Source of the DNA: Thermodesulfovibrionales bacterium
Lineage (GTDB): Bacteria > Nitrospirota > Thermodesulfovibrionia > Thermodesulfovibrionales > SM23-35
DNA length: 64,000 nucleotides
Direction of reading: 5' to 3'
NCBI GenBank assembly: GCA_049302065.1
Contig: JBAQLU010000249.1
Coordinates: 18,539 to 82,538 of the forward strand
The position numbers and the translations under genes were made by a program. Below the pieces are notes generated by a model, which saw only the letters and a list, made by a program, of their open reading frames with translations, was not told where the DNA came from and ran no database searches. This document shows, one piece after another, positions 6,129 to 47,971 of the stretch (position 1 is the first letter of the stretch; every line of letters begins with the position of its first letter).

Positions 6129-6148
6129 ATACCTGACTCCTGACATCG

Positions 6149-9497: not shown

Positions 9498-10829
9498 TTA
9501 GAATGTTCGTTTGCTGAGAGTACCGTCAGTAACAACTGCGCCGTGATAGTGACATCTGCTACAGGTACGACATGCCCAATCATCAGCTAATATTCCATGA
9601 CACATCATGGCTGTGCCTCCGCAACCTTGGGCTAAAGTAACATCAGCATGATGAGTGTTCCACCAATTATTTGACCCAGGAGTATTCTCCTGATGACAGC
9701 GCCGGCAGAGGTATCCTAATTCTTTATTAAGTAGTGTGGTAAGTGTAGTTATTTGTCCGCTAAGTGCCCCTCCGTTTACCTCTTGCCTGATTAAAACAAC
9801 ATTCGGAGCGCCATGAGGCTCATGGCAATCTGTACACGCAAGCACTTTATTTGTCGTAGAATAAGGACTTAATATTCTTGCCGCACCATCATCCCCATCA
9901 GATACACCTATTCCATGTTTTTCAACATTCCAGTCAACGGGCCTCAACCATCTACTAAGTGTAGTGCTCCACACACTATTGGCAGTGCTGGTATGGCAAT
10001 CTGTACAAAATGTAACATAGTCTGGTAGTATTGATGGATCTGAGGAAGGAGAGTTATTTGGCTCATAGTTTGTCGAAGCATACCAATATGGAGCCTGATA
10101 GCCGCCTGTATAATCACTCATCTTCTCACCATCGCCCCACAGATTACCGTGATCGCTCGGTCTTGATATTGCAGACTTAGTTGTGTCGAAAGAACCAGAA
10201 GGTTTGCCACAGCTTCTTCGTGCAATATGGATATTATGGCAGCCAGAACATGGATTGCTGTCAGATGGGAAGTTGGTGAATGTTTTGGTACCAGAAAGGC
10301 CAGTGATGAGCCTCCATATATCATACAAATTATGGTAAGACAAACCATTAAATGCATCGAAGATATTATTTGGGGTAGCATCTGGATTTCCTCCAAACGT
10401 AATACTATAGCTGTAATTGCTAAAAGAAGGACTCTGGAGGGTACCTATACTGATATGGCAGTAAAAGCAGACACTGTCATTTTGGATATAAGGGTTCATA
10501 GTTTTTGACGTATTAAAATTATTTGCTAAAAGGCAGTATTTATCAGGGCCTCCAGTTGGGTTAGGCTCAGATCCTCCTATGCTCGCATGCTGCTCATGGC
10601 AGTGGACACAGTTCCCTTTTGAATAACCAAAAGAAGTAAGGCTTGTACGGTTGACCCCATAGGTGCTATTCCCGTGGGAGGAATTGAGATAAGGACCTGA
10701 TATGGCCTTGTCAGGATACAATAACCAGATAAAAGAGCAGATAGCTAAGAGCAGAGAGCTAAAAGCCAAGAGCTTAGAGCTCAGAGTGAATTTCTGAGAT
10801 TTTTTATTAAACCACTTATTCTTCAACAT
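9498..10829 (-). CDS. Multiheme c-type cytochrome (7 canonical CXXCH plus a possible atypical C-X6-CH)
   Basis: 443-aa ORF. Motifs are CVHCH, CFYCH, CSGCH, CTDCH x2, CRRCH and CSRCH, plus CGGTAMMCH. The h-region of the signal peptide (LSSKLLAFSSLLLAICS) is encoded by the heptamer array at 10743-10786. Confidence 0.85.
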   Translation of the reverse strand: MLKNKWFNKKSQKFTLSSKLLAFSSLLLAICSFIWLLYPDKAISGPYLNSSHGNSTYGVNRTSLTSFGYSKGNCVHCHEQHASIGGSEPNPTGGPDKYCLLANNFNTSKTMNPYIQNDSVCFYCHISIGTLQSPSFSNYSYSITFGGNPDATPNNIFDAFNGLSYHNLYDIWRLITGLSGTKTFTNFPSDSNPCSGCHNIHIARRSCGKPSGSFDTTKSAISRPSDHGNLWGDGEKMSDYTGGYQAPYWYASTNYEPNNSPSSDPSILPDYVTFCTDCHTSTANSVWSTTLSRWLRPVDWNVEKHGIGVSDGDDGAARILSPYSTTNKVLACTDCHEPHGAPNVVLIRQEVNGGALSGQITTLTTLLNKELGYLCRRCHQENTPGSNNWWNTHHADVTLAQGCGGTAMMCHGILADDWACRTCSRCHYHGAVVTDGTLSKRTF

Positions 10830-10909
10830 AAATCCTCTTTTTTATCAAAATTTGTTTATTTAAAATGATTTTGTCCTTATTCTCTCTTTCGTTTGCTCTA
10901 TGCTCTTTT
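10743..10909 (-). repeat. Heptamer-array inverted pair (AGAGCNN at 10743-10786; NNGCTCT at 10881-10909) flanking the start of cytochrome gene 9498..10829
   Basis: Read directly. The first arm is agctaag agcagag agctaaa agccaag agcttag agctcag. The opposite arm, tctctctttcgtttgctctatgctctttt, begins right after the stop of the upstream gene. Confidence 0.8.
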
Positions 10910-12367: not shown

Positions 12368-13687
12368 TTACTTCTTATGACATTGGATACAAAGCTGTCT
12401 CTTTCTGTCAAAATAGAGCATAAATTCAGCCTTTGATGAATGCATGCTGTGACAGGTAATGCAGGTAATTGGCTGACCATTTCGTGGATCTTTCACATCC
12501 TGTCCGAGCGGATGCGTTACTTTATGCTGCTGAGTATGGCATCTTGAACATGTCTGAATCTTATCTGCTTTAAAATAAAGGGGATTAAGAGAATGAGGAG
12601 GAATATGACATTCAAAGCATCTTCTGTCTTTCACAGGAACGCACTTGATCGATTTCAATGCCTTCTCCATGAGGATCGTCCTCTTCTCCGTATCTTTGTG
12701 ACAGGTATAGCACAGTTGAGATTCCTTCACTGTCAGGTTCTTCCTTTTTGACGCATGGTAGCTATGACACAGCGAGCATCCACCTTTTTCATCATTGATA
12801 TGAACATCACCCTCTTTGAGTTTGGTAGTGTCCTTCTTATGACAACTAAAGCATAAATCCTTGCCTGATATCTTAGTAGTTATCTTCTTATCAGCTACAA
12901 TCGGGTTATGGCATTGTTCACATTTTTTATCCAAAAAAGCTGTGTGGCCATATGGGCCGAGAAGTCCGCTGGTGTTGGAGGAATGTCCACTGTGGCATTC
13001 ATCGCATTTCAGCTTTTCAATAGCTAAGGTTATGGAGACGTTACCCGCCTTACACTTCGCTGCATGACAGCTTTTACATAATTTGTTGGGGTTATCACGG
13101 ATCTGGTTCTCTTCTGAAGATGCATGTGGATCATGACAAGATGAACATTCACCATTCTTGAAAGGAACATGCACATAAGATTTCTTTAATTGCTCTTTTA
13201 AAGCATCGTGACAATCCCAGCAGAGATCCTTTTGCACCTTTACCAAAAGACGTTTATTATCTCCACTGTGTGCAAAATGGCAATCTGTGCACACCCCTTT
13301 TTTGATTGCAAGATGTACAAAATCCTTCTTGAGTGCTTTTTTGATCCCCTCGTGGCAACCGAGGCACAAGGAATTGATATCTTCCTTTACCAGTCCCTTC
13401 ATATTACCTGCATGTATGTTATGACAGGCGATACATTTACCGTCCTTGAAGGGGAAATGGACATAACTGCGGGACAGGCTTTCCTTTAATTTTACATGGC
13501 ATCGGTAGCAAAGATCCGGAGCTTTTTCCTTAAGATCGCCCTGAGCGGATGCGAAAACAGCGAATAGCGTAGAGCTAAGAGCAAAGAGTACGAAGCATAT
13601 AGCATATAGCATATAGCGTAGAGCGTAGATTTTTTGCTCCGTGCTCTTTGCTCTCTGCTCTCTGCTCTCTGCTTTTTGCTTATTCAT
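12368..13687 (-). CDS. Hexadecaheme c-type cytochrome (c7/c3-type repeated CXXCH-pair architecture)
   Basis: I counted 16 CXXCH, with repeated (Y/F)VHxPFKxGxCxxCH units. I prefer the ATG at 13687 (MNKQKAESREQRAKS...), which overlaps the upstream stop as cATGAATAA, over the track start at 13714. Confidence 0.9.
   Translation of the reverse strand: MNKQKAESREQRAKSTEQKIYALRYMLYAICFVLFALSSTLFAVFASAQGDLKEKAPDLCYRCHVKLKESLSRSYVHFPFKDGKCIACHNIHAGNMKGLVKEDINSLCLGCHEGIKKALKKDFVHLAIKKGVCTDCHFAHSGDNKRLLVKVQKDLCWDCHDALKEQLKKSYVHVPFKNGECSSCHDPHASSEENQIRDNPNKLCKSCHAAKCKAGNVSITLAIEKLKCDECHSGHSSNTSGLLGPYGHTAFLDKKCEQCHNPIVADKKITTKISGKDLCFSCHKKDTTKLKEGDVHINDEKGGCSLCHSYHASKRKNLTVKESQLCYTCHKDTEKRTILMEKALKSIKCVPVKDRRCFECHIPPHSLNPLYFKADKIQTCSRCHTQQHKVTHPLGQDVKDPRNGQPITCITCHSMHSSKAEFMLYFDRKRQLCIQCHKK
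13558..13680 (-). repeat. Heptamer-array hairpin element (arm 13558-13629, T6 loop, arm 13636-13680), fully inside the N-terminal coding region of the 16-heme gene
   Basis: The sequence reads ...agcgtagagctaagagcaaagagtacgaagcatatagcatatagcatatagcgtagagcgtaga tttttt gctccgtgctctttgctctctgctctctgctctctgctttttgct. It includes two perfect 3-unit runs (gcatata x3 and gctctct x3). Confidence 0.85.
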
Positions 13688-15702: not shown

Positions 15703-17379
15703 TTACTGCTTAAATTTTTTTTCAATAGCCCGAATCTCTTCTTCATTTATCTTTATCTCAGCATCTTTCTTCAGTTTATCTATATACCTGTTTAATGTGG
15801 TGTTCACCTGTTCATTTACGTATGCTTTATGCACGTTATTCTTAACCTTGGCATATTCTTCGATCACTTCGCCTGTTATATCCTGTATTCTGAATATTTT
15901 ATAAAGTGATTCAATCTCGATTATCGGGCTTGTATCTCCTGCTTTCATGGAATCTATAATCTCCCCAAGAGGTTTAGGAAGTTCAGCCTTTGTAAACAAT
16001 CCCGCATCTCCGCCCTTTTCAGTTGCTGAATCTGCAGACTTTCTTTTTGCCAGCCATAAAAAATCAGCGCCTTTCTGCAAGCTGTCTAATATTTCCTGAG
16101 CCTCTTCTCGAGATTTTACTGTAATCTGTTGGATCTTATAACGGACAGGTTTGATAAAGCTTTTCTGATGTGTTGCATAGTACTCTTCTAAATTCTTACC
16201 TGTTACAACGATCTGAGGGATTATTACTCTCTTAATAAACGTATTCTTGAGAAGTTGATTCTCATAACGATATGCCATTTTCTTTAAGCCGGGCTTCATT
16301 TCGTAATGTCTGCTGAGTGCCTCATTGTCTATCACCTTGCGGTCAATCCAGCTCTCAAGGATATTCTCTTTCGATATTTTGGGAGAAGGTTTAATCATAG
16401 CCATAAAATCTTCAACAGTTAAAACAGCGCCATTTACCTCGACTAAATGTCTTTTATCCTTAGACCATTTTTCCCTCTCGCTATCACCATCCAGTTTAAT
16501 AGCAGAGAGAAGCTTCTCATCAATCTTTATGTTTGCCTTCTCACGAAGGTATTTCAGATATTCATCACTACGCTCTTTTTCCCTTTGTTTCCTGATGGCT
16601 TTCTGCAGGCTGCCTTTTACCTTTTCGAATTCCTCGTCCGGCGCCTCTTTTCTGCTCATTAACTTTACTATGTAAAATTTTTCTGACAATTTGATAATAT
16701 CACTGACTTCATCAGGTTTTAAAGGGGAAACAGCTTTTTGTATTTCAGTCGATAGAGAACCTCTTGTAAAAACAACTTCACTCTCATCTTTCTTGGATGG
16801 ATAGGTTGAGTATTTCTGAGCAAGCTCCTTGAAATTTTTTCCATTCTTAATTTGTTCTAAGATTTCTATAGCTTTCTCCTCCAATGATATTTCTATGATG
16901 CCCAGGGTAAACCGCTCATAATTTCTCTTGTAATAGTCTTTAATTTCTTCTTCTGTTATGAAAACCTTTTGCACAATCTCCTCATCATGAAGTATGACAA
17001 CAGATTCCCTCAGGATATATGCCTCAATGGCCTGTTTCACCTCAGGATACTGATCCATACCTGCATTGCGGGCCTCATGAATAATTAATCTATCATCTAT
17101 TAGCTTTTGAACATATTGTGATAAATTTAAGGCGCCTGCTGATGAAAGGTCTTCTCTGCGGTGAGCTATATTTAAAGCATATTTAAGATCTTCTTCTGTT
17201 ACAGGTTCACCATCAACAACCGCCAGTACTGCCTCCTTTTGTGAAAGCGATGCACAGCCACCCCAAAAAATCAGCAAACAGCATAGAGCGCAGAGCATAG
17301 AGCTTAAAACATAGAATTTTTTACTCTTAGCTCTTAGCTCTTTGCTCTTAGCTCTTTGCTCTTTGCTCTTTATCTCCAT
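15703..17379 (-). CDS. Peptidyl-prolyl cis-trans isomerase, SurA/PrsA/PpiD-like lipoprotein with two parvulin-type domains
   Basis: 558-aa ORF with a lipobox-like LIFWGGC. Two parvulin-like segments are present (...NGKNFKELAQKYSTYPSKKDE... and ...KGADFLWLAKRKSADSATEKGGDAGLF...). The ATG overlaps the upstream stop (aaATGGAGATAA). Confidence 0.85.
   Translation of the reverse strand: MEIKSKEQRAKSKELRAKSKKFYVLSSMLCALCCLLIFWGGCASLSQKEAVLAVVDGEPVTEEDLKYALNIAHRREDLSSAGALNLSQYVQKLIDDRLIIHEARNAGMDQYPEVKQAIEAYILRESVVILHDEEIVQKVFITEEEIKDYYKRNYERFTLGIIEISLEEKAIEILEQIKNGKNFKELAQKYSTYPSKKDESEVVFTRGSLSTEIQKAVSPLKPDEVSDIIKLSEKFYIVKLMSRKEAPDEEFEKVKGSLQKAIRKQREKERSDEYLKYLREKANIKIDEKLLSAIKLDGDSEREKWSKDKRHLVEVNGAVLTVEDFMAMIKPSPKISKENILESWIDRKVIDNEALSRHYEMKPGLKKMAYRYENQLLKNTFIKRVIIPQIVVTGKNLEEYYATHQKSFIKPVRYKIQQITVKSREEAQEILDSLQKGADFLWLAKRKSADSATEKGGDAGLFTKAELPKPLGEIIDSMKAGDTSPIIEIESLYKIFRIQDITGEVIEEYAKVKNNVHKAYVNEQVNTTLNRYIDKLKKDAEIKINEEEIRAIEKKFKQ
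17276..17371 (-). repeat. Heptamer-array hairpin element (arm 17276-17316, T6 loop, arm 17323-17371) encoding the N-terminus of the PPIase
   Basis: The sequence reads gcatagagcgcagagcatagagcttaaaacatagaa tttttt actcttagctcttagctctttgctcttagctctttgctctttgctcttta. In sense orientation it translates to KSKEQRAKSKELRAKSKK-FYVLSSMLCALCCLL. Confidence 0.85.
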
Positions 17380-19204: not shown

Positions 19205-19846
19205 TTAAAATAATGAACCGATAGACTCCCTTACTACCTTCCCGGCAGCTTCACTCAGTGAAGGTCCTTCTGAACCAAAATGTCTGGTCCAGAAGTCAGG
19301 GCCGCCGGTTGTATGACGCACCGACCAGACAATATTTCCTGAATTTACCTCAATCATTCTTAAATTTATGGTAACCTCCGGATAACTGACCGAAATACCC
19401 CTGCCTGTCCCGAATGCCTCTACAGATCCTAATATTACTGCTTCTACATTTAAAGCTTTTCCGATCTCCTGGATTTCTGAAACTTTTACAGATCCGAGGG
19501 ACTTGATCTTCATTTCCCTAAAAAGTCTTGTTACCTCACCCGGCTCAATCACATCAACATCCCTTGAAAGAAGTTCTGTAATTGCTATTCTCCTTATCTT
19601 TTCACCAGCATAATCATCCTGAGTAAAGTTTTCAAAAGGTAAAATAGCTACTTTTTTGACGCTTTCAACATCAGTTTTTGGACGGACAAAATGTGTGGGT
19701 CCACATCCTTGTATAAAAAACAGCAAAAAACATATGGCATAGAGCATAGAGCATAGAGCTAATCCCCCCACCCCCCCTTTTGTAAAGGGGGGTAAGGGGG
19801 GATTAACGTATAGAGTTTTTTTCATTTTGTTCTTTGCTATTTTCAT
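19205..19846 (-). CDS. Small lipoprotein, paralog of 18568..19149
   Basis: 213-aa ORF with lipobox IQGC and motifs VAILPFENFTQDDYAG and GGPDFWTRHFGSEGPSLSEA. The N-terminal ~33 codons run through a heptamer array and a GC palindrome. The true start is uncertain (ATG at 19846, 19825 or 19747). Confidence 0.6.
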   Translation of the reverse strand: MKIAKNKMKKTLYVNPPLPPFTKGGVGGLALCSMLYAICFLLFFIQGCGPTHFVRPKTDVESVKKVAILPFENFTQDDYAGEKIRRIAITELLSRDVDVIEPGEVTRLFREMKIKSLGSVKVSEIQEIGKALNVEAVILGSVEAFGTGRGISVSYPEVTINLRMIEVNSGNIVWSVRHTTGGPDFWTRHFGSEGPSLSEAAGKVVRESIGSLF

Positions 19847-19887
19847 TTTACTCTCTACTCTTAGCCCTTTGCTCTTCGCTCTTTGCT
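19731..19887 (-). repeat. Heptamer-array inverted pair (19731-19761 and ~19850-19887) with a nested GC-rich palindrome (19761-19803)
   Basis: The first arm is catatggcatagagcatagagcatagagcta. The palindrome is aatcccccccaccccccctttt g taaaggggggtaaggggggatt. The second arm is actctctactcttagccctttgctcttcgctctttgct, beginning just after the OMP stop codon. Confidence 0.8.
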
Positions 19888-19891
19888 ATTG

Positions 19892-22216
19892 TTACCAGAA
19901 TCTGCACGTCAGATTACCTCCGATATTATATGTCTTCAACTTTTTTTCTTTCTCATCACGTGTATAGATATAGTTTAACTGAAGATCTGAAAATTTCGTT
20001 ATGTACCACATTACATAGCTGCTCAGTGAATGAACAGTATTTGGTCCTGGTTCTGTTTTACTATGCTGGTAGCTTAAATTCATCCTGATTGCCGGCAAAA
20101 AAAGCCAGTCAATAATCATTCCTTCCGAGATATTTGTATCTCCATCCGTATCTGATACCTTAATATTACCCGAAAGATTGATAAACCTTCCAGGTCGATA
20201 GGTTAAAATAAAATAACCGTCCTTTGAAGTTGTGGAAGTGGTGCCTGATGTTCGTGTAAGACCAAACGAAAGATTTCCTGATAGTTTTTGGGTAAGGCGG
20301 GCGTCAAGCGTATTTCTTATATATTTTGTAGAAGTTCCGGTCTTTTCAGTAATTGTTGTTTCAGAAATTTGACGTTCTGTCGGAAAACTCTCTGATCGTG
20401 TATAACCAATATCAGTAATCATGTTGACATCCCTGTATAAGCGGGAACCGATTGTCAGGAAATACAGGGTATTCATGGATTGTTTCTCATCGAAACTGTA
20501 ACTGTAGGTTCTGATGAAAGATAAGTTTGTATTAAGTGTCGGCAGAGGAGATGAATTAAAGGTTAAGGAATATGTATCAGACACGATATCGGTTTTACTG
20601 ATATCCGTTTCGTCTTTATTGTCAAATGCTTCATTCCTTTGAAAACGCACTGTTGTTGTCAGCAGCCTGTGGGTAAGCCATGTTGAGCTTATCCCGTAGG
20701 TCCTTGTTATATTGCTTCTTAATTTATTGTCTTCTTCATTTGTAGGTTTTTTGAATATGCTTTGAAATGCACTCCCGATGGAACCCAAAACTGAATCGGG
20801 GTTTTCGTCTGCCTTGTTTAAAAAGTAATTAAGCGAAAAGGTGAGTCTGTTGAAGGGTCTTAAGTTAGCTAACAGGTTAATACCATGCGTAAAGAATGTG
20901 GTGACGTCCGTAATCTTTCCTGACTGTGGTATTACATCCGTACCGAATGCCTCGATTTCCGTCACTAAGACATCATTTATCGAAGCATTTTCCCTATTGA
21001 TCACTCTGAAATATGAACCACTTTGTGGATTAAAAAATCGTATCTCATACCGATAAACCGTATTCAGGATATCAAATGCAGATACTGTTACAGTCTGGAC
21101 AGGTATTTCCGTCCATGTAGCAGGCAGATTAAAGTCACTCAGGTATACCCTCCAGTTGTTTACATTGATGAGATTTGTATCTGATCTAACATCTTTATTT
21201 ACATAAATAAATAGTGTATCTACAGGTTTTGTTGTTGAAAATAATTGAATACCTATGTTATGGAATTTATTTCCGTTCTGGCCGATATTAATCGTACCTG
21301 CAGCAGTAGTTACCGGGACATTGTAAATATTATCAATCAGTGCATTGGCGGGGATCAATGTATCAACGTCTGGTTGGAGTTGTGTCCCCAGTCCATACCT
21401 GCCGGATGAGGGTGTACGCTCAAAAGGCACATTGCCGGTCTGAGTAGCATACTGGTCATTTTTGTTCCGGACATAATTTCCCTGATAGCCGGCTGATACA
21501 TTGGCTCTGCCGCTCCAGAAAGACTTATTGTAACCAAGGCTGTATAATGCATTAAGGCTGTTGTTGATTGTTTTTGAAATTGTACCTATCGGTGTTTTAC
21601 TCTCATTTCGTGTGTATGTGAGGTTATATGATATTTTTATATCTTTGTACAATACATCATACCAGGAACTACCTGAAAATCTATTATTAGTGGTATCAAT
21701 TTTCCTTTCTGAAAGATGGTCGTAATCCTTCTGCCTGTCAAACTGAAGTGACAGGGAAGGTAAATCATAAGGTCTCACATTCAAGCGTGCATAATAAAAT
21801 TCAGTGGTTTTTCTGCTGTCATCACTCAGATTTGCCGTTGACCACTGCTCCAGGCGCCGCGTTCCGACATCCAGACCATAAATAGGGTTTCGAAAAGAAA
21901 GATCTAATGCAGGCTCTATCGCCCTCTGGTAAGTCTTTGTTGTTTTATCCTGAGAATCGGTAGTATGCGAGTTTGTAAGATTAGTCCTGAGATATAGCTG
22001 ATAAGAGATCAGCGGGGTGATTGATTTGTCCAAACGAAGATAATAATTCTGATTAAGATTATCTGAGGTCTGACTCCTTTTGTCATCTTCGAACTGTTTC
22101 ATATAAGTATAATTTATATTAAACCATGCACTTGGGCCTTCAGCATAAGCTGATGAACAAAAAAAAAGCATAAAGCATAGAGCGAAGAGCATAGAGCGAA
22201 GAGCATAGAGTTTCAT
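19892..22216 (-). CDS. Large outer-membrane beta-barrel protein with an inserted discoidin-like jelly-roll domain
   Basis: 774-aa ORF with a signal peptide ending AYA/EG. Alternating amphipathic strands run throughout and the C-terminus is ...NLTCRFW (aromatic terminal residue typical of OMPs). Residues ~262-427 (ALIDNIYNVP...NWRVYLSD...GSYFRVIN...VLVTEIEAFG) look like the jelly-roll modules of the giant cytochrome. Confidence 0.75.
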   Translation of the reverse strand: MKLYALRSMLFALCFMLFFCSSAYAEGPSAWFNINYTYMKQFEDDKRSQTSDNLNQNYYLRLDKSITPLISYQLYLRTNLTNSHTTDSQDKTTKTYQRAIEPALDLSFRNPIYGLDVGTRRLEQWSTANLSDDSRKTTEFYYARLNVRPYDLPSLSLQFDRQKDYDHLSERKIDTTNNRFSGSSWYDVLYKDIKISYNLTYTRNESKTPIGTISKTINNSLNALYSLGYNKSFWSGRANVSAGYQGNYVRNKNDQYATQTGNVPFERTPSSGRYGLGTQLQPDVDTLIPANALIDNIYNVPVTTAAGTINIGQNGNKFHNIGIQLFSTTKPVDTLFIYVNKDVRSDTNLINVNNWRVYLSDFNLPATWTEIPVQTVTVSAFDILNTVYRYEIRFFNPQSGSYFRVINRENASINDVLVTEIEAFGTDVIPQSGKITDVTTFFTHGINLLANLRPFNRLTFSLNYFLNKADENPDSVLGSIGSAFQSIFKKPTNEEDNKLRSNITRTYGISSTWLTHRLLTTTVRFQRNEAFDNKDETDISKTDIVSDTYSLTFNSSPLPTLNTNLSFIRTYSYSFDEKQSMNTLYFLTIGSRLYRDVNMITDIGYTRSESFPTERQISETTITEKTGTSTKYIRNTLDARLTQKLSGNLSFGLTRTSGTTSTTSKDGYFILTYRPGRFINLSGNIKVSDTDGDTNISEGMIIDWLFLPAIRMNLSYQHSKTEPGPNTVHSLSSYVMWYITKFSDLQLNYIYTRDEKEKKLKTYNIGGNLTCRFW

Positions 22217-22282
22217 GCTCTTTTTCCTTTGCTCTTAGCTCTTAGCTCATTGCTCATTGCTCTTTGCTCATTGCTCTTCGCT
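22167..22282 (-). repeat. Heptamer-array hairpin with the OMP start codon in the loop (arm 22167-22210, loop tttcat = ATGAAA, arm 22217-22282)
   Basis: The sequence reads agcataaagcatagagcgaagagcatagagcgaagagcatagag tttcat gctctttttcctttgctcttagctcttagctcattgctcattgctctttgctcattgctcttcgct. Confidence 0.85.
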
Positions 22283-23936
22283 AATAAGGAAACATCGCTA
22301 TCCCATACGGTTTTTTCCCTACAGGGATAACCTTTTCTTCCCTGCTCGTAGTTTTATCTATTACCGAGACATTATCCGAACCCCTATTGACTACGTAAAT
22401 CTTTCTACCTTCGGGATCTAAGATTAAGGATCTTGGAGAATTCCCTACCGTGATTGTTCCCATTACCGGTGCTATGGTTGTTTTAACCGTGCTTAATGCT
22501 TCGGAAAATGGCCTAATGATCATTATCTCGCCGGAGATCTCCTTTAATAAATAGATTCTGTCAAGATCAGGGTCAGAGATAATCCCTACAACAGAAGTCC
22601 CGACATTTGTAATAGAACTGACAGCTCCGGGTCTATTAATAATCTGAATAATATCAATAACCGAGAGATTGTCATAATTATAATTACCTACATAAACCTT
22701 TGCCCTTTGATAATCGGCTGCAATCGCTATTGGTCTCCAGTCAACACTTAATTGCATAATTCCATCAACCCTGCTGTTATGAATATCCATTCTTATAATC
22801 GAGACATCCCTGGAATTCTTATTCGCAACATATACATTGAAAAACTTCTCACGATAATTTCTTAATAAAAGGAGATCATCAAAGCTGAGAAATCTTGAAC
22901 CTGACAGACTCTCAATCGGTGGGTCTGCGGCGATTGCGATAGGTCCACTCCCTACATTTATTTTTTCAATCTCCTGATAGGTTGAGGTATCAATAACAGA
23001 GACGTTGTCAGAACCATAATTTGTTACAAATATAAGTTCTTTTTTAGGAGATATCTTTGTAACAGCTACCCCTTCTGGTTCCCTGCCAAACCTTATCGGT
23101 ATTTCCATCTCAACCTTATGGACAGTAGGGTCTATAACGGAAATACTGTTTGAGCCTGAATTAGCCACATAAACCCGTGGATATTCTTTAACCTGGCTCA
23201 CTGCAACGCCCCTCGGTTTCTTTCCCACCATTATAGTTGCAACGATTTCACCTGATTGTCTGTTAATGACAGAGACATTATTTGAACCTTCATTCGTCAC
23301 ATAGATAAGCAAAGTACTTAATTCCGGGACCTGACCTTTGACAGCGAATACAGGATTGAAAAGGTATCCGTCTGCAACGGAAGCATCGGCGTTCCAGTTT
23401 AAAAATAATGACGTGTTCTGGTTTCTTGTTATCGTAATATCTATACTTATCTCTATCCCTTCGGGTGGAAGCGCCAGATTTGCTGTTTTGTCTTTTTTCC
23501 GGATCAAAGCTTGTTTCACTATGAGCTGAAGTTTCTTGTATCTGCCCTCGGGCAGATATCTCTCACCCAGACGCACCTGACGACCCGTAAGAGATATTGA
23601 ATTTATATTCACCGGGGTATTCATAATCTCTCTGTATGTACCGTCTTCTGACAGAATATTGACTGCTGCAAGTTCAAATGTTAAATCCGTTGAGGTTATA
23701 TCAGGCCCTTTCAGAAGAACAGTAATCTGCCCATTGGTTGTACCCGGAGACTCAATGTACTCCTGAACAGATGCACACCCCACCCCGAAAACAAGCAAAG
23801 AGCAAAGAGCTAATAGCAAAGAGTTCTTAGCAAAGAGCTTAGAGCGAAGAGCAAAAAGTTTAGAGCCGCCGACTAAAAGCCTAAAGCGAATAACTAAATT
23901 TTGAGATTTTTTATAAAGCCGCTCATCATTCGACAT
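22281..23936 (-). CDS. Lipoprotein with an N-terminal DUF4382-like domain and a YVTN-family beta-propeller
   Basis: 551-aa ORF with lipobox VFGVGC. Six YVTN-type blades are visible: YVTNEGSNNVSVI, YVANSGSNSISVID, FVTNYGSDNVSVID, YVANKNSRDVSII, YVGNYNYDNLSVID and YVVNRGSDNVSVID. Confidence 0.85.
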   Translation of the reverse strand: MSNDERLYKKSQNLVIRFRLLVGGSKLFALRSKLFAKNSLLLALCSLLVFGVGCASVQEYIESPGTTNGQITVLLKGPDITSTDLTFELAAVNILSEDGTYREIMNTPVNINSISLTGRQVRLGERYLPEGRYKKLQLIVKQALIRKKDKTANLALPPEGIEISIDITITRNQNTSLFLNWNADASVADGYLFNPVFAVKGQVPELSTLLIYVTNEGSNNVSVINRQSGEIVATIMVGKKPRGVAVSQVKEYPRVYVANSGSNSISVIDPTVHKVEMEIPIRFGREPEGVAVTKISPKKELIFVTNYGSDNVSVIDTSTYQEIEKINVGSGPIAIAADPPIESLSGSRFLSFDDLLLLRNYREKFFNVYVANKNSRDVSIIRMDIHNSRVDGIMQLSVDWRPIAIAADYQRAKVYVGNYNYDNLSVIDIIQIINRPGAVSSITNVGTSVVGIISDPDLDRIYLLKEISGEIMIIRPFSEALSTVKTTIAPVMGTITVGNSPRSLILDPEGRKIYVVNRGSDNVSVIDKTTSREEKVIPVGKKPYGIAMFPY

Positions 23937-24289
23937 AATTCCTCGAGTTTTAACAAGATTGTTTGTTTAACGTGATTTTGTATATATTCTCTTTTTTCGA
24001 AAAGAATCATCATGTTTGCATTTTCGAAACAAGATCTTTTAGCAATATTTAAAAATTGAACAAATTCCTTTTTGGAATTACTTCCCGAACCTTCTGCTAT
24101 ATTATTTGATATTGATAGAGCAGCTCCTCTTAACTGCTCAGCAAATTTATATAACTTTTTCCTTTCAAGATCATCAGAAATATCAAACAAATTTCCCGCA
24201 ATCTCTATTGATTTTTTCCATATCTCTAAATTCTCAAATCTAAACATCTGTATTTCCTACTCTTTGCTCTATGCTCTTTGCTCTTCGCT
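23793..24289 (-). repeat. Split heptamer-array pair (long arm 23793-23892, short opposite arm 24259-24289) bracketing the four-helix-bundle gene
   Basis: The long arm is aagcaaagagcaaagagctaatagcaaagagttcttagcaaagagcttagagcgaagagcaaaaag.... The opposite arm is actctttgctctatgctctttgctcttcgct. The 354-nt ORF 23894..24247 lies between them. Confidence 0.75.
23894..24247 (-). CDS. Four-helix-bundle protein (23S rRNA intervening-sequence protein family)
   Basis: 117-aa ORF: FENLEIWKKSIEIAGNLFDIS...FAEQLRGAALSISNNIAEGSGSNSKKEFVQFLNIAKRSCFE. The FxxLxVWQKA...QLxRAAxSIxxNIAEG...FL..A.GS..E pattern is diagnostic of this family. Confidence 0.85.
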   Translation of the reverse strand: MFRFENLEIWKKSIEIAGNLFDISDDLERKKLYKFAEQLRGAALSISNNIAEGSGSNSKKEFVQFLNIAKRSCFENANMMILFEKREYIQNHVKQTILLKLEELCRMMSGFIKNLKI

Positions 24290-25271
24290 ATTCATTTGCT
24301 TTAAACACCTGTATCCTGTCATTAAAGGTATCGGCAACAAGTACCCTGCCCTGAGAGTCAACAGCTATATCCCTCGGATACTGAAACCATCCTTCACCCC
24401 AGCCCAGGCCGCCAAATTCAAATAAATATTTCCCATCCTTATCATAGGCAGATACAGTATGACGCATATAATCTACCACATACATCCTGCCATTGCGATT
24501 ATCCACACCAACTGCCCGAGCCCGGCTTAGCTTACCCTTGCTTCCTCCCTTTTGCCCGAATTTAAAAAGAAATTTTCTATTTTCATCATATACATAGATG
24601 TGTCCTTCCTCCTCGCTTACAAGATATATCCTGCCTTCTTTATCCACAGTCACGTAGTCTAATTTCACCTTCTTCCCTTCTTCCTCGGGTGATAAGATCT
24701 CCAATAGCTCCCCCTGATTATTCAGAATCAGAATGCCTGAAAAGTATGACCCGGCTACGTAAATATTTCCATTTTTATCCGTAGACAGGCGATAGGGCAT
24801 AAATGAATCGGCTCCCTCAAAACCCTTTAAATAGATATCACGCTCCCATTTAAAACATGCATTAAAAACCGAAATCTTATGTCTGGGATTCTCCTTTGTT
24901 GCGCTATGAGCAACATAAAGGTTACCTTCAGCATCTACAGTCAAGCCCTGTGGTGTTTCAATACCGTACTTTTTGCTAAGGGTAAAGACGGGGAAAAAAT
25001 CTGATGTATATATTATTATCTTAGTTTGACTAATAACATAAATCTCATTACTGATCGGGTCTGAGAACACAAAAGAAGGGAAGTGTATCTTACCCCCTTC
25101 CTCATCCTCAGTTATAACATCAAGATAGGTTACCGAGGTAACGGCCTGCTGTGCAACGAGTTTGTGAGGAATACATAGCACATAGCAAAGAGCAAGGAGC
25201 AAACAGCTAAAAGCTAACAAAGTAGCACGTTTTTTTCTCTCAAGATCATTTAAATTCTCAAACCTAAACAT
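24288..25271 (-). CDS. Secreted NHL-repeat six-bladed beta-propeller protein
   Basis: 327-aa ORF. NHL blades include LYVAHSATKENP, IYVAGSYFSGILILNNQG, IYLVSEEEGHIYVYDENRKFLFKFG, MYVVDYMRHTVSAYDKDGKYLFEFG and VLVADTFNDRIQVF. The first 14 codons are a remnant of a four-helix-bundle gene. Confidence 0.85.
   Translation of the reverse strand: MFRFENLNDLERKKRATLLAFSCLLLALCYVLCIPHKLVAQQAVTSVTYLDVITEDEEGGKIHFPSFVFSDPISNEIYVISQTKIIIYTSDFFPVFTLSKKYGIETPQGLTVDAEGNLYVAHSATKENPRHKISVFNACFKWERDIYLKGFEGADSFMPYRLSTDKNGNIYVAGSYFSGILILNNQGELLEILSPEEEGKKVKLDYVTVDKEGRIYLVSEEEGHIYVYDENRKFLFKFGQKGGSKGKLSRARAVGVDNRNGRMYVVDYMRHTVSAYDKDGKYLFEFGGLGWGEGWFQYPRDIAVDSQGRVLVADTFNDRIQVFKANE
25173..25226 (-). repeat. Single heptamer array encoding the h-region of the NHL protein signal peptide
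   Basis: The array reads acatagcacatagcaaagagcaaggagcaaacagctaaaagctaacaaagtagc. In sense orientation it translates to ATLLAFSCLLLALCYVLC. Confidence 0.75.
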
Positions 25272-26759: not shown

Positions 26760-27896
26760 CTATTGGTTTTTTTTGGTATGACAGGCAAGGCAGCCCTTTT
26801 TTGTCACATTCCGAGTATCCATTTTTGAATAATCCCATCTCAGGATATCAGAATATTGGCTTGCATGTGACCTGTGACAGGAAAGGCACATAAGTATACT
26901 GTTTGAATCAACAACTTCTTCTCCACCTGTGGGCTGTCCAAAAGCAACAGGGGCTTCGAGACTGTACGTAACATAACCCTGATACTCAGAACTTGCAAAA
27001 CCACCATGTACAGTTGCAAAGGCAATATCAGCAGGATGCCTGCGCCATATGGAGTTATAAGCTTGCCCAACCTCCCTGCTGCCGCCAAGATTGGGATTGG
27101 GATGGAACTTGGCATGACATTCGCCGCAGAGATAACTTATGGTATCCATGGTATCATGAGCGATATCACCCTTGTAGCCGTTATGATTATTGATAGTGGC
27201 CAGATATTCCCAGTCTCTATGTTCCGTGCCTTTTATTCCGTAAAGAAAGCGATAACTTTTGCCAACTGTTGAGCCATCGATAATACGGTCATCTGAATGG
27301 TGCGCCCCATATAGAGATTGATAAAGGTTTTCAATTGTCCTGTTCCCATGACATCCCCATGTTCCTGCACAGGTAAGCTGCTGCTGGCCAGGCCAATATG
27401 CAGGCCCGGTTCCTCCCGGTATCAGTACATTCTTCATAAATCCAGGAGGGACATCCATTGGAGGGTTTTCCTGGCGGGAGATGCCTTTGATATTGTGCCC
27501 CTTTGAATAATCAGGATTATATTCATCTGCAACGTAATAAAAATTCCCGCCTGCCAGATCATCGTTTTGCAGATGATGCAGTATCTGAGGAATCCTGGTC
27601 TTTCCAGTGGTGATGATGCTTTTTGTGCCGTTCGGATTCCGGCCATGACAGCCGATACAGCCGCCTTGCGTGAGGGCAGGAAATGGTCCCTGACGATCTC
27701 CATAGGTAACCTCCTTGCCTTCATAACTGTAATGCATGCTATGGCAATCTTTGCATTTCCCTTTTACCCTTGCATCAACAACAGAAGCAAAGAGCATATA
27801 GCATAGAGCAAAGAGTAAAATATAGAAAACCCTTGCTCCTTGTTCTTTGCTCTTTGCTCTTAGCTCTTTGCTCTTGGCTATTTTCCTGTATGGCAT
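26760..27896 (-). CDS. OmcS-like multiheme cytochrome, paralog 3 (5 CXXCH + 1 CX5CH)
   Basis: Track ORF 26760..27905. I prefer the ATG at 27896 (MPYRKIAKSKELRAKSKEQ...). Motifs are CKDCHSMH, CIGCH, AGGNFYYV..KGHNI, CAGTWGCHG, YRFL, CGECHAKFH..WRRHP, CLSCHRSHAS, ILRWDY and GCLACHT. Confidence 0.8.
   Translation of the reverse strand: MPYRKIAKSKELRAKSKEQGARVFYILLFALCYMLFASVVDARVKGKCKDCHSMHYSYEGKEVTYGDRQGPFPALTQGGCIGCHGRNPNGTKSIITTGKTRIPQILHHLQNDDLAGGNFYYVADEYNPDYSKGHNIKGISRQENPPMDVPPGFMKNVLIPGGTGPAYWPGQQQLTCAGTWGCHGNRTIENLYQSLYGAHHSDDRIIDGSTVGKSYRFLYGIKGTEHRDWEYLATINNHNGYKGDIAHDTMDTISYLCGECHAKFHPNPNLGGSREVGQAYNSIWRRHPADIAFATVHGGFASSEYQGYVTYSLEAPVAFGQPTGGEEVVDSNSILMCLSCHRSHASQYSDILRWDYSKMDTRNVTKKGCLACHTKKNQ
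27783..27879 (-). repeat. Heptamer-array hairpin element (arm 27783-27826, loop aaaccct, arm 27834-27879) encoding the N-terminus of OmcS-like paralog 3
   Basis: The sequence reads agaagcaaagagcatatagcatagagcaaagagtaaaatataga aaaccct tgctccttgttctttgctctttgctcttagctctttgctcttggct. It translates to AKSKELRAKSKEQGARVFYILLFALCYMLFA. Confidence 0.85.
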
Positions 27897-41818: not shown

Positions 41819-44017
41819 TTATAAAATCGGTTCCATTTCCAATGCCGGATGTCCGGCGCTGGCGAGGAACTCGAGTAATTTCTCGGAATCTTCACATACG
41901 GTCTCATCAGCAATCTTGGCTAAAAGGTCCGGCACCCCTTCCTCGGCTGCTCTCTTATCAAAAGCTTCTTTAAGGCTTTCTTTCAGATTTTTGGTCATCC
42001 AGACAATTCTCTTAATCCCTCCATCACCGGCAAGAAATTTCTTGCTGACAATAAAAATCCTGCCAACGCCCATAAATCCGGGGTTTTGGGTGCCTCCACC
42101 TACAGTTCCCGCTAATGTAGAAAACTTCATCCCTGCAGGTGTCATTCCGGTATGACCGCGGTTAACGATCATTACACCATTAGCTTCCGGAATGATCGCT
42201 ACGATACACTCGAAGCAGCCGCATGAGGTCATGGGATTCTCCATAATCGTATAAAGGTTCAACGTCTCTAACGCACCGCCTGATGCCTTTTTGAGATATT
42301 CATCGATACCGGTATACCTCCCGTATTTTGTATCGATAAGGTCTCCCTTGAGTATGGGCTGGTTCCCTCCTGTTGGGTCTATCTCAAAGGCCGCCTTACA
42401 GTCGAGCCAGTTATATGCTCCACAGAGACCGAGACGTTCGGGGCTGATGACGCAAACATGACTCGGAGCAAAGGACTGGCAGAGAAGACAGGAATAAAAT
42501 GTGTCCACCGCATCGTCGACAAGTCCGCCCAGTCTCCGGTCGCGTTCTTTGTATGCCGCCCTCGCCTCCTCCTGCAATCTCAGCACATCTTTCTCATCGG
42601 TATAGATCGTCACCTGAACCTTATCCACAATCGACTTGAACCTGTGGTGTGTCATCGTAGCATTGAGTATTCCGAGATGCTCAAGGGTGAATCCGTCCTT
42701 TTTTGCGTTTTGGTTGATCCTTATCCAGTTGATATCGCGCTGGCCCATGTGCCAGATGCCCTGGGCCTCATTGATATTATGATGCACTTTCCTTTCTATG
42801 ACAGACTCAAAATCCTTCTGCATCTTTCTGCCTGCCACATCAATGACAATGGCCAAAGGCATCTTCCCGCCTTTCTCATACTGTTCCTGCCAGTTATTGC
42901 CAATCAGGGTGACCTTGCCATCCTCGATATCTTCCATTTCACGCATCCTTACCCACTCAAACGAAGGGGTACGCGCACCACCGAATTCTATGAACATATC
43001 TTCTTTCCGTATCCGCTCACCTTCGAATGCCGGGCCGTAGGAAACGGGTATAGGAGGTTTATCAACAACGATTTTCAAACCCCTCACCTCTATCGCCTTC
43101 TGAACAATCTTATTATGGTCAAATTCTTTATCGACCGCTTCATAAATACACACACCTGTCGGATGTATAACCGGAACATCAGTATCACAAATAGCAGGAA
43201 AGCCCATATTTATAGCGCCGGCTCCTGTTGACCATTTAATGTCATCAAAATCTCCGAGGGCAATTGCAAATGCAAAGACCCTATCTTTTTGGTACTTTAG
43301 ATGCTCCTTAAAATCTCCTGGTTTTTTGCCTCCAAATATAAGTGACGCCCTTATCGCCCAATCAAGGGCGTAAAGGGTATGTTCCGTATCAGGACCGAGG
43401 GGGACGATTCTTGTATCCCAGCCCAGTTCAACACCTTTTCTCTGAAGCTGTTTCGTTACACTATTACCATTGGTGTGGCCTGAAAGAAAGGTAAGGATAT
43501 TCTTCTCCTGAAGTTCTCGTATTATCTTTACTGCAGTATCATCATCAGGCGCTGCTCCGATAACTGCAGCAAAACCCGGCATTGTCCCATCGACAAGCTG
43601 GATGCCCAGATTCCTCTGAATAGTATCTGTTACAAAACCATTATAGACATATCCTGTTTCAGGATCTGTTACAGGTTCAAGGCCATTTATATAACGTAAT
43701 GCCATGATAATCTCTTCAGCAAAGAGCGTAGCCATCCCTGAATCAAGTGCTTCACCCAAATATGGTTTCCAGAGGTGTTCCTCAGGTTCCGGATGGAGTA
43801 ATTCTCTTGCCATACCGAGAGCCACCTTCATATCCGACAGCGTTTTAACAGGAAAACCTGTCATGGCATATATCATGGGAAGATAATATGCTGTATCAGG
43901 GAATTCAAATGGAAAACTTAATCCCTTTTCAGTAATAGTTTTTTCGAGCATTTCCTCAGCCTGCCTGACAAGCCTGTGTGCGCCTCTTATAGCTGCTGAG
44001 GCTATTAACTTAGACAT
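41819..44017 (-). CDS. acsB: CO-methylating acetyl-CoA synthase (ACS, A-cluster subunit)
   Basis: 732-aa ORF. It has the A-cluster motif region ...MTSCGCFECIVAI... and is AcsB/CdhC-like over its full length. Confidence 0.9.
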   Translation of the reverse strand: MSKLIASAAIRGAHRLVRQAEEMLEKTITEKGLSFPFEFPDTAYYLPMIYAMTGFPVKTLSDMKVALGMARELLHPEPEEHLWKPYLGEALDSGMATLFAEEIIMALRYINGLEPVTDPETGYVYNGFVTDTIQRNLGIQLVDGTMPGFAAVIGAAPDDDTAVKIIRELQEKNILTFLSGHTNGNSVTKQLQRKGVELGWDTRIVPLGPDTEHTLYALDWAIRASLIFGGKKPGDFKEHLKYQKDRVFAFAIALGDFDDIKWSTGAGAINMGFPAICDTDVPVIHPTGVCIYEAVDKEFDHNKIVQKAIEVRGLKIVVDKPPIPVSYGPAFEGERIRKEDMFIEFGGARTPSFEWVRMREMEDIEDGKVTLIGNNWQEQYEKGGKMPLAIVIDVAGRKMQKDFESVIERKVHHNINEAQGIWHMGQRDINWIRINQNAKKDGFTLEHLGILNATMTHHRFKSIVDKVQVTIYTDEKDVLRLQEEARAAYKERDRRLGGLVDDAVDTFYSCLLCQSFAPSHVCVISPERLGLCGAYNWLDCKAAFEIDPTGGNQPILKGDLIDTKYGRYTGIDEYLKKASGGALETLNLYTIMENPMTSCGCFECIVAIIPEANGVMIVNRGHTGMTPAGMKFSTLAGTVGGGTQNPGFMGVGRIFIVSKKFLAGDGGIKRIVWMTKNLKESLKEAFDKRAAEEGVPDLLAKIADETVCEDSEKLLEFLASAGHPALEMEPIL

Positions 44018-44030
44018 CCCGACCTCCTAT

Positions 44031-44140
44031 ATAATCAGAATACAGAACTCAGAATACAGAGCACAGATTACAGAACACAGATTTTAATTTCTTATTAGAC
44101 TTCTTTGGTCTATGCTCTGTGTTCTGTCTTCTGTGATCTC
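44031..44140. repeat. Inverted heptamer arrays (CAGANNN x7 / NNNTCTG x4) in the acsC-acsB intergenic gap
   Basis: The sequence reads cagaata cagaact cagaata cagagca cagatta cagaaca cagattt ...loop... tctatgc tctgtgt tctgtct tctgtga tct. Confidence 0.85.
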
Positions 44141-47785: not shown

Positions 47786-47971
47786 ATGAAGAAGATTATA
47801 GCATTAGTTTTATCATTAATGTTATTGGTGGCATTTACCGTTGGTTGCAAGCCGGCAGAAACACCAAAACCTGAGGCACCAGCACCGGCACCGGCAACAG
47901 CACCAGCACCGGAGAAGCCAGCTGAGGCACCAGCACCGGCACCAGCACCGGAGAAACCAGCACATAAATAA
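47786..47971 (+). CDS. Small Pro/Ala-rich lipoprotein
   Basis: The sequence is MKKIIALVLSLMLLVAFTVGC (lipobox VGC) followed by PEAPAPAPATAPAPEKPAEAPAPAPAPEKP. A strong SD (GGAAGGAGGTG) precedes the ATG at 47786, and a terminator follows. Confidence 0.6.
   Translation: MKKIIALVLSLMLLVAFTVGCKPAETPKPEAPAPAPATAPAPEKPAEAPAPAPAPEKPAHK

Follow-up and report, generated by a model that had tools for sequence, protein, structure and literature searches.

A heptamer hairpin at the start of an outer-membrane barrel gene is probably a gene-less copy of an IVS-like palindromic element with one arm read as signal peptide

We analysed a 64,000-nucleotide stretch of DNA from a Thermodesulfovibrionales bacterium (assembly GCA_049302065.1, contig JBAQLU010000249.1, positions 18,539 to 82,538), hereafter the window, in which the gene for an outer-membrane β-barrel protein begins inside a long hairpin built from tandem heptamers. 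In our assessment the hairpin is probably a gene-less copy of a palindromic element resembling the intervening sequences (IVS) of 23S rRNA, one arm of which has been co-opted as signal-peptide code, with the location of the start codon in the stem as a by-product. We judge this location to be a tolerated outcome of element decay rather than an evolved switch. What is new here is an IVS-type element that lies outside rRNA, lacks its gene, overlaps a start region and has been co-opted as a signal peptide. All genes around the hairpin are on the minus strand, and coordinates below refer to that strand unless marked (+).

The hairpin (22283-22159) begins on the stop codon of the preceding gene, which encodes a YVTN β-propeller lipoprotein (22281..23936; matches to TIGR02276 and PF10282). 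The TAG of this gene (22281..22283) supplies the first bases of arm 1 (TAGC...), a 64-nt segment (22217..22280) that is non-coding for the barrel and, read from 22280 to 22217, consists of C followed by nine NNAGAGC-type heptamers, one of them degenerate: GAAGAGC AATGAGC AAAGAGC AATGAGC AATGAGC TAAGAGC TAAGAGC AAAGGAA AAAGAGC. The barrel ATG (22216-22214) and an AAA codon follow, with a Shine-Dalgarno-like AGGA (22225..22228) 8 nt before the ATG. Arm 2 (22162..22210) comprises seven CTCTNNG-type heptamers, CTCTATG CTCTTCG CTCTATG CTCTTCG CTCTATG CTTTATG CTTTTTT from 22210 to 22162, and encodes LYALRSMLFALCFMLFF, the hydrophobic core of the signal peptide MKLYALRSMLFALCFMLFFCSSAYA (22142..22216), with cleavage predicted before EGPS and a conserved mature N-terminus, AEGPS. 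Both arrays were called by Tandem Repeats Finder, which found in arm 2 a 14-nt period that is 100% identical over 2.6 copies, against matches at only 75-78% of positions when the unit is taken as 7 nt. Two facing arrays, the upstream one forming a 5′ untranslated region (UTR) that starts on the previous stop codon and the downstream one coding for a signal peptide, had been described in a sequence-only reading of this DNA, and this anatomy is confirmed. Immediately 3′ of arm 2 is a T9 run (22159..22167), inside the codons for L-F-F-C; the hairpin and T run were not called by a terminator scan of the window, and the run also codes for the conserved LFFC.

An in-frame TAA lies seven codons 5′ of ATG 22216, which makes this ATG the earliest possible barrel start. 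The NCBI annotation of an identical protein (P0001, WA126_16275, 736 aa) begins at Met39 and omits the repeat-encoded signal peptide, and many database orthologues are truncated likewise at the N-terminus. Since a secreted barrel needs a signal peptide, ATG 22216 is a credible start and Met39 is not. Two mini open reading frames (mini-ORFs) cross arm 1 (22213..22271), in a chain that begins 10 nt after the YVTN stop. The one from ATG 22271 reads MSKEQ*, its TGA overlapping ATG 22257, from which the next reads MSNELRAKSKGKRA* and ends in a TGA (22215-22213) that overlaps the barrel ATG as ATGA. Such a relay also arises in 22% of unit-permuted arms and is weak evidence, to be taken as a lead only. 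We also considered whether the barrel Shine-Dalgarno sequence and ATG were the captured start region of a gene for the 23S rRNA intervening-sequence protein (IVP); the GGAAAxA..ATG likeness is too weak to claim this, in contrast to the clear IVP remnants at 25271 and 10888 described below.

The predicted fold departs clearly from chance. For a 161-nt segment RNAfold gave -59.8 kcal/mol, compared with a mean of -44.6 (sd 4.1) for dinucleotide shuffles (z = -3.7; 0 of 200 shuffles as stable), and for a tighter 141-nt segment -52.4 kcal/mol (z = -4.2). Fold energies of the hairpin overall ranged from -52 to -62 kcal/mol, and with z about -4 this copy has the inverted repeats and the predicted long stem of IVS-like elements. 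Of the 41 ORF starts examined across the window, the barrel start region (-60..+60) has the most stable predicted fold, at -45.8 kcal/mol against -33.1 for the next and a median of about -19. The predicted stem comprises coaxial helices of 12, 5, 4, 5, 7, 3 and 9 bp, interrupted by frequent internal loops of 1-4 nt. The sequence-only reading had made its regulatory idea depend on a stem more stable than shuffled controls, as this one is, and had put both the Shine-Dalgarno sequence and the start codon in the loop. A hairpin over the start is real, but the AUG falls in the apical 9-bp helix (AAGAGCAUG/UAUGCUCUU, 22199..22222), which is capped by a 6-nt loop, AAACUC (codons 2-3), and the AGGA at -12..-9 falls in a half-open internal loop. 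The RNAfold ensemble leaves the AUG unpaired with a probability of 0.01-0.10 and the AGGA with one of 0.36-0.75, a predicted pattern (AUG paired, Shine-Dalgarno sequence partly so) that a sequestering operator at a ribosome-binding site would have. Rfam and tRNA scans of the window gave no match.

The hairpin is one of a family within the window, where there are 12 period-7 arrays (547 nt) and 0-4 arrays at lags 5, 6 and 8-11. AGAGC/GCTCT arrays occur at eight minus-strand gene starts of a cytochrome cluster. One sibling carries a gene (23790..24294): its arm 1 (24257-24294) and arm 2 (23790-23860) enclose an IVP gene (23894..24247) whose 117-aa product is a four-helix bundle of the IVP/S23p type (PF05635, E 2.6e-29; TIGR02436, E 2.7e-29). 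Its two arms form a predicted duplex of -53.2 kcal/mol (z -6.1), and arm 2 runs into the signal peptide of the YVTN protein. The YVTN start (23936) overlaps the 3′ end of the IVP gene in a different frame. Homologues of the IVP in the PDB are 2gsc and 2rld, with five chains deposited for each, and PADLOC found no defence-system match for it.

Four further siblings have no gene. At 13.6, 17.3 and 27.8 kb (13587..13685, 17276..17374 and 27786..27883) the start codon lies 5′ of arm 1, and therefore both arms are translated, as MNKQKAESREQRAKSTEQKIYALRYMLYAICF... at the first site and MEIKSKEQRAKSKELRAKSKKFYVLSSMLCALC... at the second; arm 1 of the third begins at the TAG of the upstream cytochrome gene. 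The copy at 17276 had already been assigned to the same repeat family, with one arm non-coding at the barrel as the distinguishing feature, and our analysis agrees. The fourth (19729..19891) occupies the junction between the barrel gene and a CsgG-like lipoprotein gene and has a G/C-rich palindrome nested in its loop. This palindrome, CCCCCCTTACCCCCCTTTACAAAAGGGGGGGTGGGGGG (19770-19815), is translated as NPPLPPFTKGGVGG and also occurs in L001, L004, L010, L063 and L067 (L numbers denote loci outside the window); many barrel orthologues have the NPPLPPFTKGGVGG motif in their N-termini. It constitutes a second repeat family, reminiscent of the GGGGATT type.

Two more siblings are decayed. At 25172..25271 an NHL gene opens with an internally deleted IVP remnant (MFRFENL..DLERKK; identities to IVP of 20/21 nt and 17/19 nt), followed by arm 2 (25172-25217). 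At 10733..10888 the gene for a heptahaem cytochrome (10829) starts inside an IVP C-terminal remnant (10793-10888) and continues into arm 2 (10733-10786). The N-termini of the NHL protein and the heptahaem cytochrome are chimeras of element sequence. A gene-less hairpin of a second heptamer type (GACAGAA/CACAGAA ... TTCTGTN; -45.7 kcal/mol) is found at 44036..44134, in the 5′ UTR of the gene at 41819..44017; its unit is similar to the GACAGAT/GACAGAA repeats found in the Coxiella IVS.

The link between IVP genes and inverted heptamer arrays extends well beyond the window. The IVPs of the Thermodesulfovibrionia loci include four subtypes that share 25-33% identity with the window IVP, and every subtype has an inverted heptamer unit of its own. 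In a metagenomic sample of 80 IVP loci (35-95% identity), found with a type-A alignment and biased towards MFRFE-type IVPs, a period-7 array lay upstream in 45, downstream in 48 and on both sides in 30, so that about three-quarters had one on at least one side. A mixed-subtype alignment (A2) had proved too divergent for the metagenome scan and was replaced. Arrays cover 19.0% of the 150-nt flanks of these 80 loci, 0.77% of sequence more than 300 nt away and 0.4% of the ORF interior, with flank coverage of 0.1% or less at lags 5, 6, 8 and 9. Arms flanking IVP genes pair with each other in predicted duplexes of -23 to -65 kcal/mol (z -2.9 to -7.7). The more the IVPs diverge, the more their units differ (rho -0.36; Mantel 0/2000), the mean unit distance being 1.05 above 70% IVP identity and 3.15 at 30-40%.

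Of the pairs of neighbouring arrays in 483 kb of Thermodesulfovibrionia DNA, 25 are inverted-complementary and 3 direct. The gaps within the inverted pairs are bimodal (20 at no more than 101 nt, 5 at 350-431 nt), and gene-less copies exceed gene-bearing ones about 4 to 1. Four-helix-bundle genes on plasmids are flanked in the same way in five of six examined (Nostoc edaphicum, N. punctiforme, Calothrix, Geminocystis and Riemerella); the sixth, from Nostoc PCC 7120, has heptamers downstream only, not complementary to its upstream flank. A blastn comparison of the fetched IVP loci with E. coli rrn found no rRNA similarity, and no locus lies in rRNA. IVP elements were also seen at two other conserved junctions in unrelated uncultured lineages, which from their translated flanks appear to involve ABC-transporter permease/ATPase genes and rpmG (L33)/a tRNA gene (L070, L072, L079, L082; L113, L117, L119, L127, L128). 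At both of these junctions the arms are non-coding, and the signal-peptide role is therefore a local co-option. A literature search found no paper linking IVP genes in general to inverted heptamer arrays or signal peptides, an absence that is no proof of novelty.

Comparison of the same junction in other species bears directly on what the hairpin does. The barrel has 160 homologues, those with a source name being Nitrospirota or Thermodesulfovibrionales, and their N-termini are hypervariable and often repeat-derived. At 50 orthologous YVTN-to-barrel junctions, period-7 arrays were present at 16, covering 5.1% of the junction against 0.02% of the gene body and about 0-1% at other lags. Units vary by species (AGAGC, TGACCAA, GTTTAC, GGTAACG, AGCTGAT), and so does the position of the start codon relative to the hairpin, which is at the apex in the window and L016, 3′ of it in L008 and L009, or 5′ of it, or the hairpin is absent. 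The two element-free orthologues that we read in detail, L011 and L012, have an ordinary signal peptide and a YVTN gene ending in TAA; element-bearing orthologues mostly end in TAG-C. The junction holds a gene-less hairpin in the window, L016 and L025, an IVP gene between AGAGC arms in L004, and a divergent IVP between AAATTGT/ACAATTT arms in L057 (P0019).

Two relatives are especially informative. In L016 the full stem is kept (z -5.95), arm 2 is longer than that of the window by exactly three units (10 against 7; 21 nt) and in frame, and a single 21-codon upstream open reading frame (uORF; about 2937-3004) starts 2 nt past the YVTN stop and has the same ATGA end. L054-L056, with 90% identity in the barrel protein, retain the ATG-AAA start and arm 2; their arm 1 has degenerated and is split by an insert of ~165 nt resembling a miniature inverted-repeat transposable element, and the local z is -1.1. 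This insert (2624-2788 in L054/L055) is palindromic, with terminal inverted repeats TACTAAGGAGTTCATAAGTAA and G/C-rich internal hairpins. L054, L055 and L056 are three independent samples with identical junctions, and L054 shows no mini-ORF relay. Among the 50 junctions the hairpin/start-codon arrangement is not conserved: it is kept only in the window and L016, is weak in L054, and is otherwise different or absent.

These observations can be joined in a single scheme. An intact copy consists of two inverted tandem-heptamer arrays that can pair as a long stem around a small PF05635/TIGR02436 gene (S23p, an Avd-like four-helix bundle). Such elements lie within operons, immediately 3′ of a host stop codon, and fill most cistron junctions of this candidate extracellular-electron-transfer cluster. 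Conceptually translated, AGAGC-type arrays yield a K/E/R/Q/S-rich peptide in every frame and their complement an L/A/C/F/Y/M/S-rich one, and because three heptamers equal seven codons, every frame gives the same cyclic peptide. A gene that reads through the arms thereby gains a charged n-region and then a hydrophobic h-region, in either orientation, and for this reason the arms have probably been co-opted as signal-peptide code. In the barrel copy only arm 2 is coding, presumably under selection as the signal-peptide core, and arm 1, as 5′ UTR, would be free to decay. In the polycistronic mRNA the arms are predicted to form an imperfect stem of ~45 bp that pairs the AUG, which would make independent initiation less frequent; the Coxiella IVS, as an analogue, makes the stem a plausible substrate of RNase III as well. 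Protein-level selection as the origin of the repeat was rejected, since the same arrays are non-coding elsewhere and around IVP genes.

Several points weigh against this account. The loop of the barrel hairpin contains no detectable IVP remnant, and for that reason we infer descent by deletion from the sibling copies; the reverse history, with IVP genes inserting into pre-existing hairpins, is possible. The apical helix with its AUG and loop is identical in L016 and the window at about 60% protein identity, and a shorter hairpin around the AUG persists in L054, either of which could reflect selection on structure. The uORF chain, with its terminal ATGA on the barrel start, is a hint of organised coupling. 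Finally, the correlation between IVPs and their arrays could stem in part from shared descent and host base composition.

In a rival account the stem would be a dedicated device that blocks free ribosome entry, such that the barrel is made by ribosomes arriving from the YVTN gene through the mini-ORF relay, or upon a melting signal, and the stoichiometry of the porin-cytochrome components is fixed. The paired AUG, in the most structured start region of the window, the apical helix shared with L016 and reduced in L054, and the ATGA endings of both the window chain and the single L016 uORF all speak for such coupling. We nevertheless regard it as unlikely, given a start-codon position that wanders across the 50 junctions, arrays at only 16 of them, a relay that permuted arms often produce and L054 lacks, and an arm 1 that decays in a close relative; covariation offers no help, as the three related copies are near-identical at the apex and hold no divergence to score. 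The regulatory role proposed in the sequence-only reading is accordingly not supported as a dedicated one: the insertion is a generic palindromic one found at many junctions, and the AUG falls within a helix instead of the loop. Occlusion of the start codon is a plausible consequence of the predicted stem, but a dedicated translational switch is unproven because start-codon position varies among orthologues and arm 1 has decayed in the 90%-identity relative, a comparative pattern that argues against a conserved switch. The earlier interpretation as a whole is thus partly supported, and among its proposals it is processing by RNase III that gains most from homology of architecture, with the Coxiella IVS and the hairpin of Haemophilus influenzae hmw1A making it plausible. 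As the main function, cleavage would separate the YVTN and barrel segments and set their relative stability, the barrel perhaps then being translated from in-frame AUGs of the CTCTATG units. The Coxiella IVS is excised by RNase III with its 5′ cut at the first heptamer (PMC4990558), the heptamer hairpin in the hmw1A 5′ UTR is processed with an effect on expression (PMC12721329), and the stem predicted here has long coaxial helices. Cutting both strands, however, would part the Shine-Dalgarno sequence and AUG from the coding region, a destructive event unless downstream AUGs were used, the frequent small internal loops may block cleavage, and no sampled IVP locus is in rRNA, so that this seems distinctly unlikely as the principal role.

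Two other functions can be set against our preferred reading of a decayed, co-opted element. The IVP, as a pentameric four-helix-bundle protein encoded 1.7 kb upstream, might bind its cognate AGAGC arrays as RNA or DNA and so co-regulate or maintain all array-bearing genes of the cluster, much as REPINs are paired with RAYTs. Each IVP subtype has its own flanking unit, units and IVPs diverge together, gene-less copies predominate about 4 to 1, compact elements have 4-6 units per arm, and the five-chain homologues 2gsc and 2rld recall the homopentameric toroid described for Xanthomonas S23p (PMC4990558). Joint inheritance of arms and ORF would produce the same co-variation, though, and S23p is reportedly not expressed in Coxiella (PMC4990558), which leaves an operator of this kind very unlikely in our estimate. 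Least probable is a contingency locus, in which slipped-strand changes of heptamer number in arm 2 would frameshift the barrel on and off as in Neisseria opa. The unit is not a multiple of 3, the 14-nt period is perfect over 2.6 copies, copy number differs between species (7 against 10 units), and it varies among Coxiella strains as well (PMC4990558). The arrays are nevertheless short and, read as heptamers, imperfect, the sole observed difference is exactly three units and in frame, the three independent L054-lineage assemblies agree at the junction, and a sediment or groundwater anaerobe is under no obvious selection of the host-immune style.

Among the closest known systems is the 23S rRNA IVS with an S23p/IVP ORF, as in Coxiella burnetii and Leptospira (PMC4990558). 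The Coxiella IVS has a 28-bp terminal stem, which RNase III cuts, and the S23p ORF in its loop; the heptamer GACAGAT is present in two or three tandem copies between the Shine-Dalgarno sequence and the S23p ATG, and heptamer copy number differs among strains (PMC4990558). Common to both are terminal inverted repeats that form a long stem, a PF05635-family ORF in the loop of intact copies, tandem heptamers of variable copy number adjoining this ORF, and the view of the element as selfish, with an ORF prone to decay. In contrast to the IVS, the element here resides in a protein-coding operon rather than in helix 9, 25 or 45 of 23S rRNA, one of its arms codes for a signal peptide, and the start codon of a host gene falls within the stem. 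The barrel copy lacks the ORF (its loop is 6 nt) and is classed as a gene-less derivative, not as a full member.

Other systems share some of these traits. The 5′-UTR hairpin of H. influenzae hmw1A, with (ATCTTTC)n as one arm, is processed by RNase III, which modulates expression; the likeness is that transcribed tandem heptamers make up one side of a long hairpin ahead of the gene for a surface protein (PMC12721329). There, however, the partner arm is a G-rich region and not an array of inverted heptamers, the repeats are both perfect and phase-variable, no IVP is associated and no arm codes for a signal peptide. With the REPIN-RAYT system (PMC3116915) the element shares short hairpin-forming inverted repeats dispersed between genes and a single-copy gene flanked by its cognate repeat, with gene-less copies outnumbering gene-bearing ones. 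The gene here, by contrast, encodes a 117-aa four-helix bundle (PF05635/TIGR02436) without known catalytic activity, not a RAYT (an IS200/IS605-like Y1 transposase), and its arms consist of tandem heptamers where REPINs have a unique REP sequence, so that the likeness is one of sequence arrangement. Tandem 7-nt arrays between genes, often just upstream of start codons, are also familiar from cyanobacterial STRR sequences, Xanthomonas (PMC4692102) and Beggiatoaceae (PMC4679880). TAACTGA arrays sit just upstream of start codons in Beggiatoaceae, cyanobacteria and Bacteroidetes (PMC4679880), and Xanthomonas has 70-75 convergent (inverted) pairs of GGGAATC arrays, with no link drawn to S23p (PMC4692102), that resemble ours in being convergent pairs between co-directional genes. 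The unit here is instead of the AGAGC type, and the arrays are not tied to IVP/S23p genes or signal peptides in these reports (PMC4692102, PMC4679880, PMC3116915).

The barrel gene itself (19892..22216) encodes 774 aa and matched no Pfam or NCBIfam family. Its AlphaFold model (pLDDT 85.8) has a helix at residues 2-19, then β-strands that form a large β-barrel, and the best PDB match is MtrB (6r2q_B) of the Shewanella Mtr porin-cytochrome complex (E 3.9e-9, TM 0.36-0.41). This match agrees with the neighbouring genes, because they carry 5-26 CXXCH motifs each. A canonical intrinsic terminator (25390-25353; 17-bp stem and T run) separates a pentahaem cytochrome gene from the NHL gene, and therefore the NHL, IVP, YVTN, barrel and following genes make up one predicted transcription unit. 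Very haem-rich cytochromes, with 13, 16 and 26 CXXCH motifs, are encoded at 681-6146, 12368-13714 and 13680-15650, and the same cluster includes the barrel, YVTN and NHL genes, two genes for CsgG/LpoB-like lipoproteins and one for a SurA-like peptidyl-prolyl isomerase (PPIase). It looks like a candidate porin-cytochrome cluster for extracellular electron transfer. Elsewhere in the window, a tandem repeat of period 6/12/39 (47875-47964 (+)) encodes a low-complexity C-terminus of APAPAPEKPAE type.

As a coding repeat, arm 2 also has a counterpart in the CTCTT repeats of Neisseria opa, which are pyrimidine-rich, have a unit length not divisible by 3 and lie in the signal-peptide hydrophobic core of an outer-membrane protein. 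A short pyrimidine-rich repeat of non-triplet length that codes for a signal-peptide core is thus common to both; the opa repeats are perfect, highly variable and without an inverted partner, and their phase variation is not seen here. The TGACCAA/TTGGTCA units at orthologous junctions match a unit that we take to be STRR2. To our knowledge, the function of rRNA-IVS ORFs and of bacterial heptanucleotide arrays has been open since about 1990, and this locus ties the two together. The association of IVPs with arrays in general is more interesting than the single hairpin: inverted heptamer arrays typically border the IVP gene in Nitrospirota, Cyanobacteriota, Bacteroidota and uncultured lineages, inside operons and not in rRNA.

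We offer tentatively, as a possibility rather than an expectation, that IVP genes and inverted tandem-heptamer arrays are one cross-phylum class of element, in which every IVP subtype has a heptamer unit that it recognises or evolves together with, and hairpins lacking the gene are its non-autonomous copies, comparable to the REPINs of a RAYT. If true, one system would unify 23S rRNA IVS, cyanobacterial STRR, the convergent heptamer pairs of Xanthomonas and the hairpins described here, and within Thermodesulfovibrionia it would repeatedly have supplied the extracellular-electron-transfer cluster with Sec signal peptides and start regions, whatever its orientation. The association of IVP genes with arrays itself predicts, testably, that IVPs bind their cognate heptamers and that RNase III cleaves the stems. 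A practical consequence concerns annotation, as gene callers omit repeat-encoded signal peptides in the way that the NCBI barrel start at Met39 illustrates. The locus also illustrates a concrete route from selfish palindrome to host coding sequence, the purine-rich arm serving as charged n-region and its complement as hydrophobic h-region, irrespective of frame and orientation.

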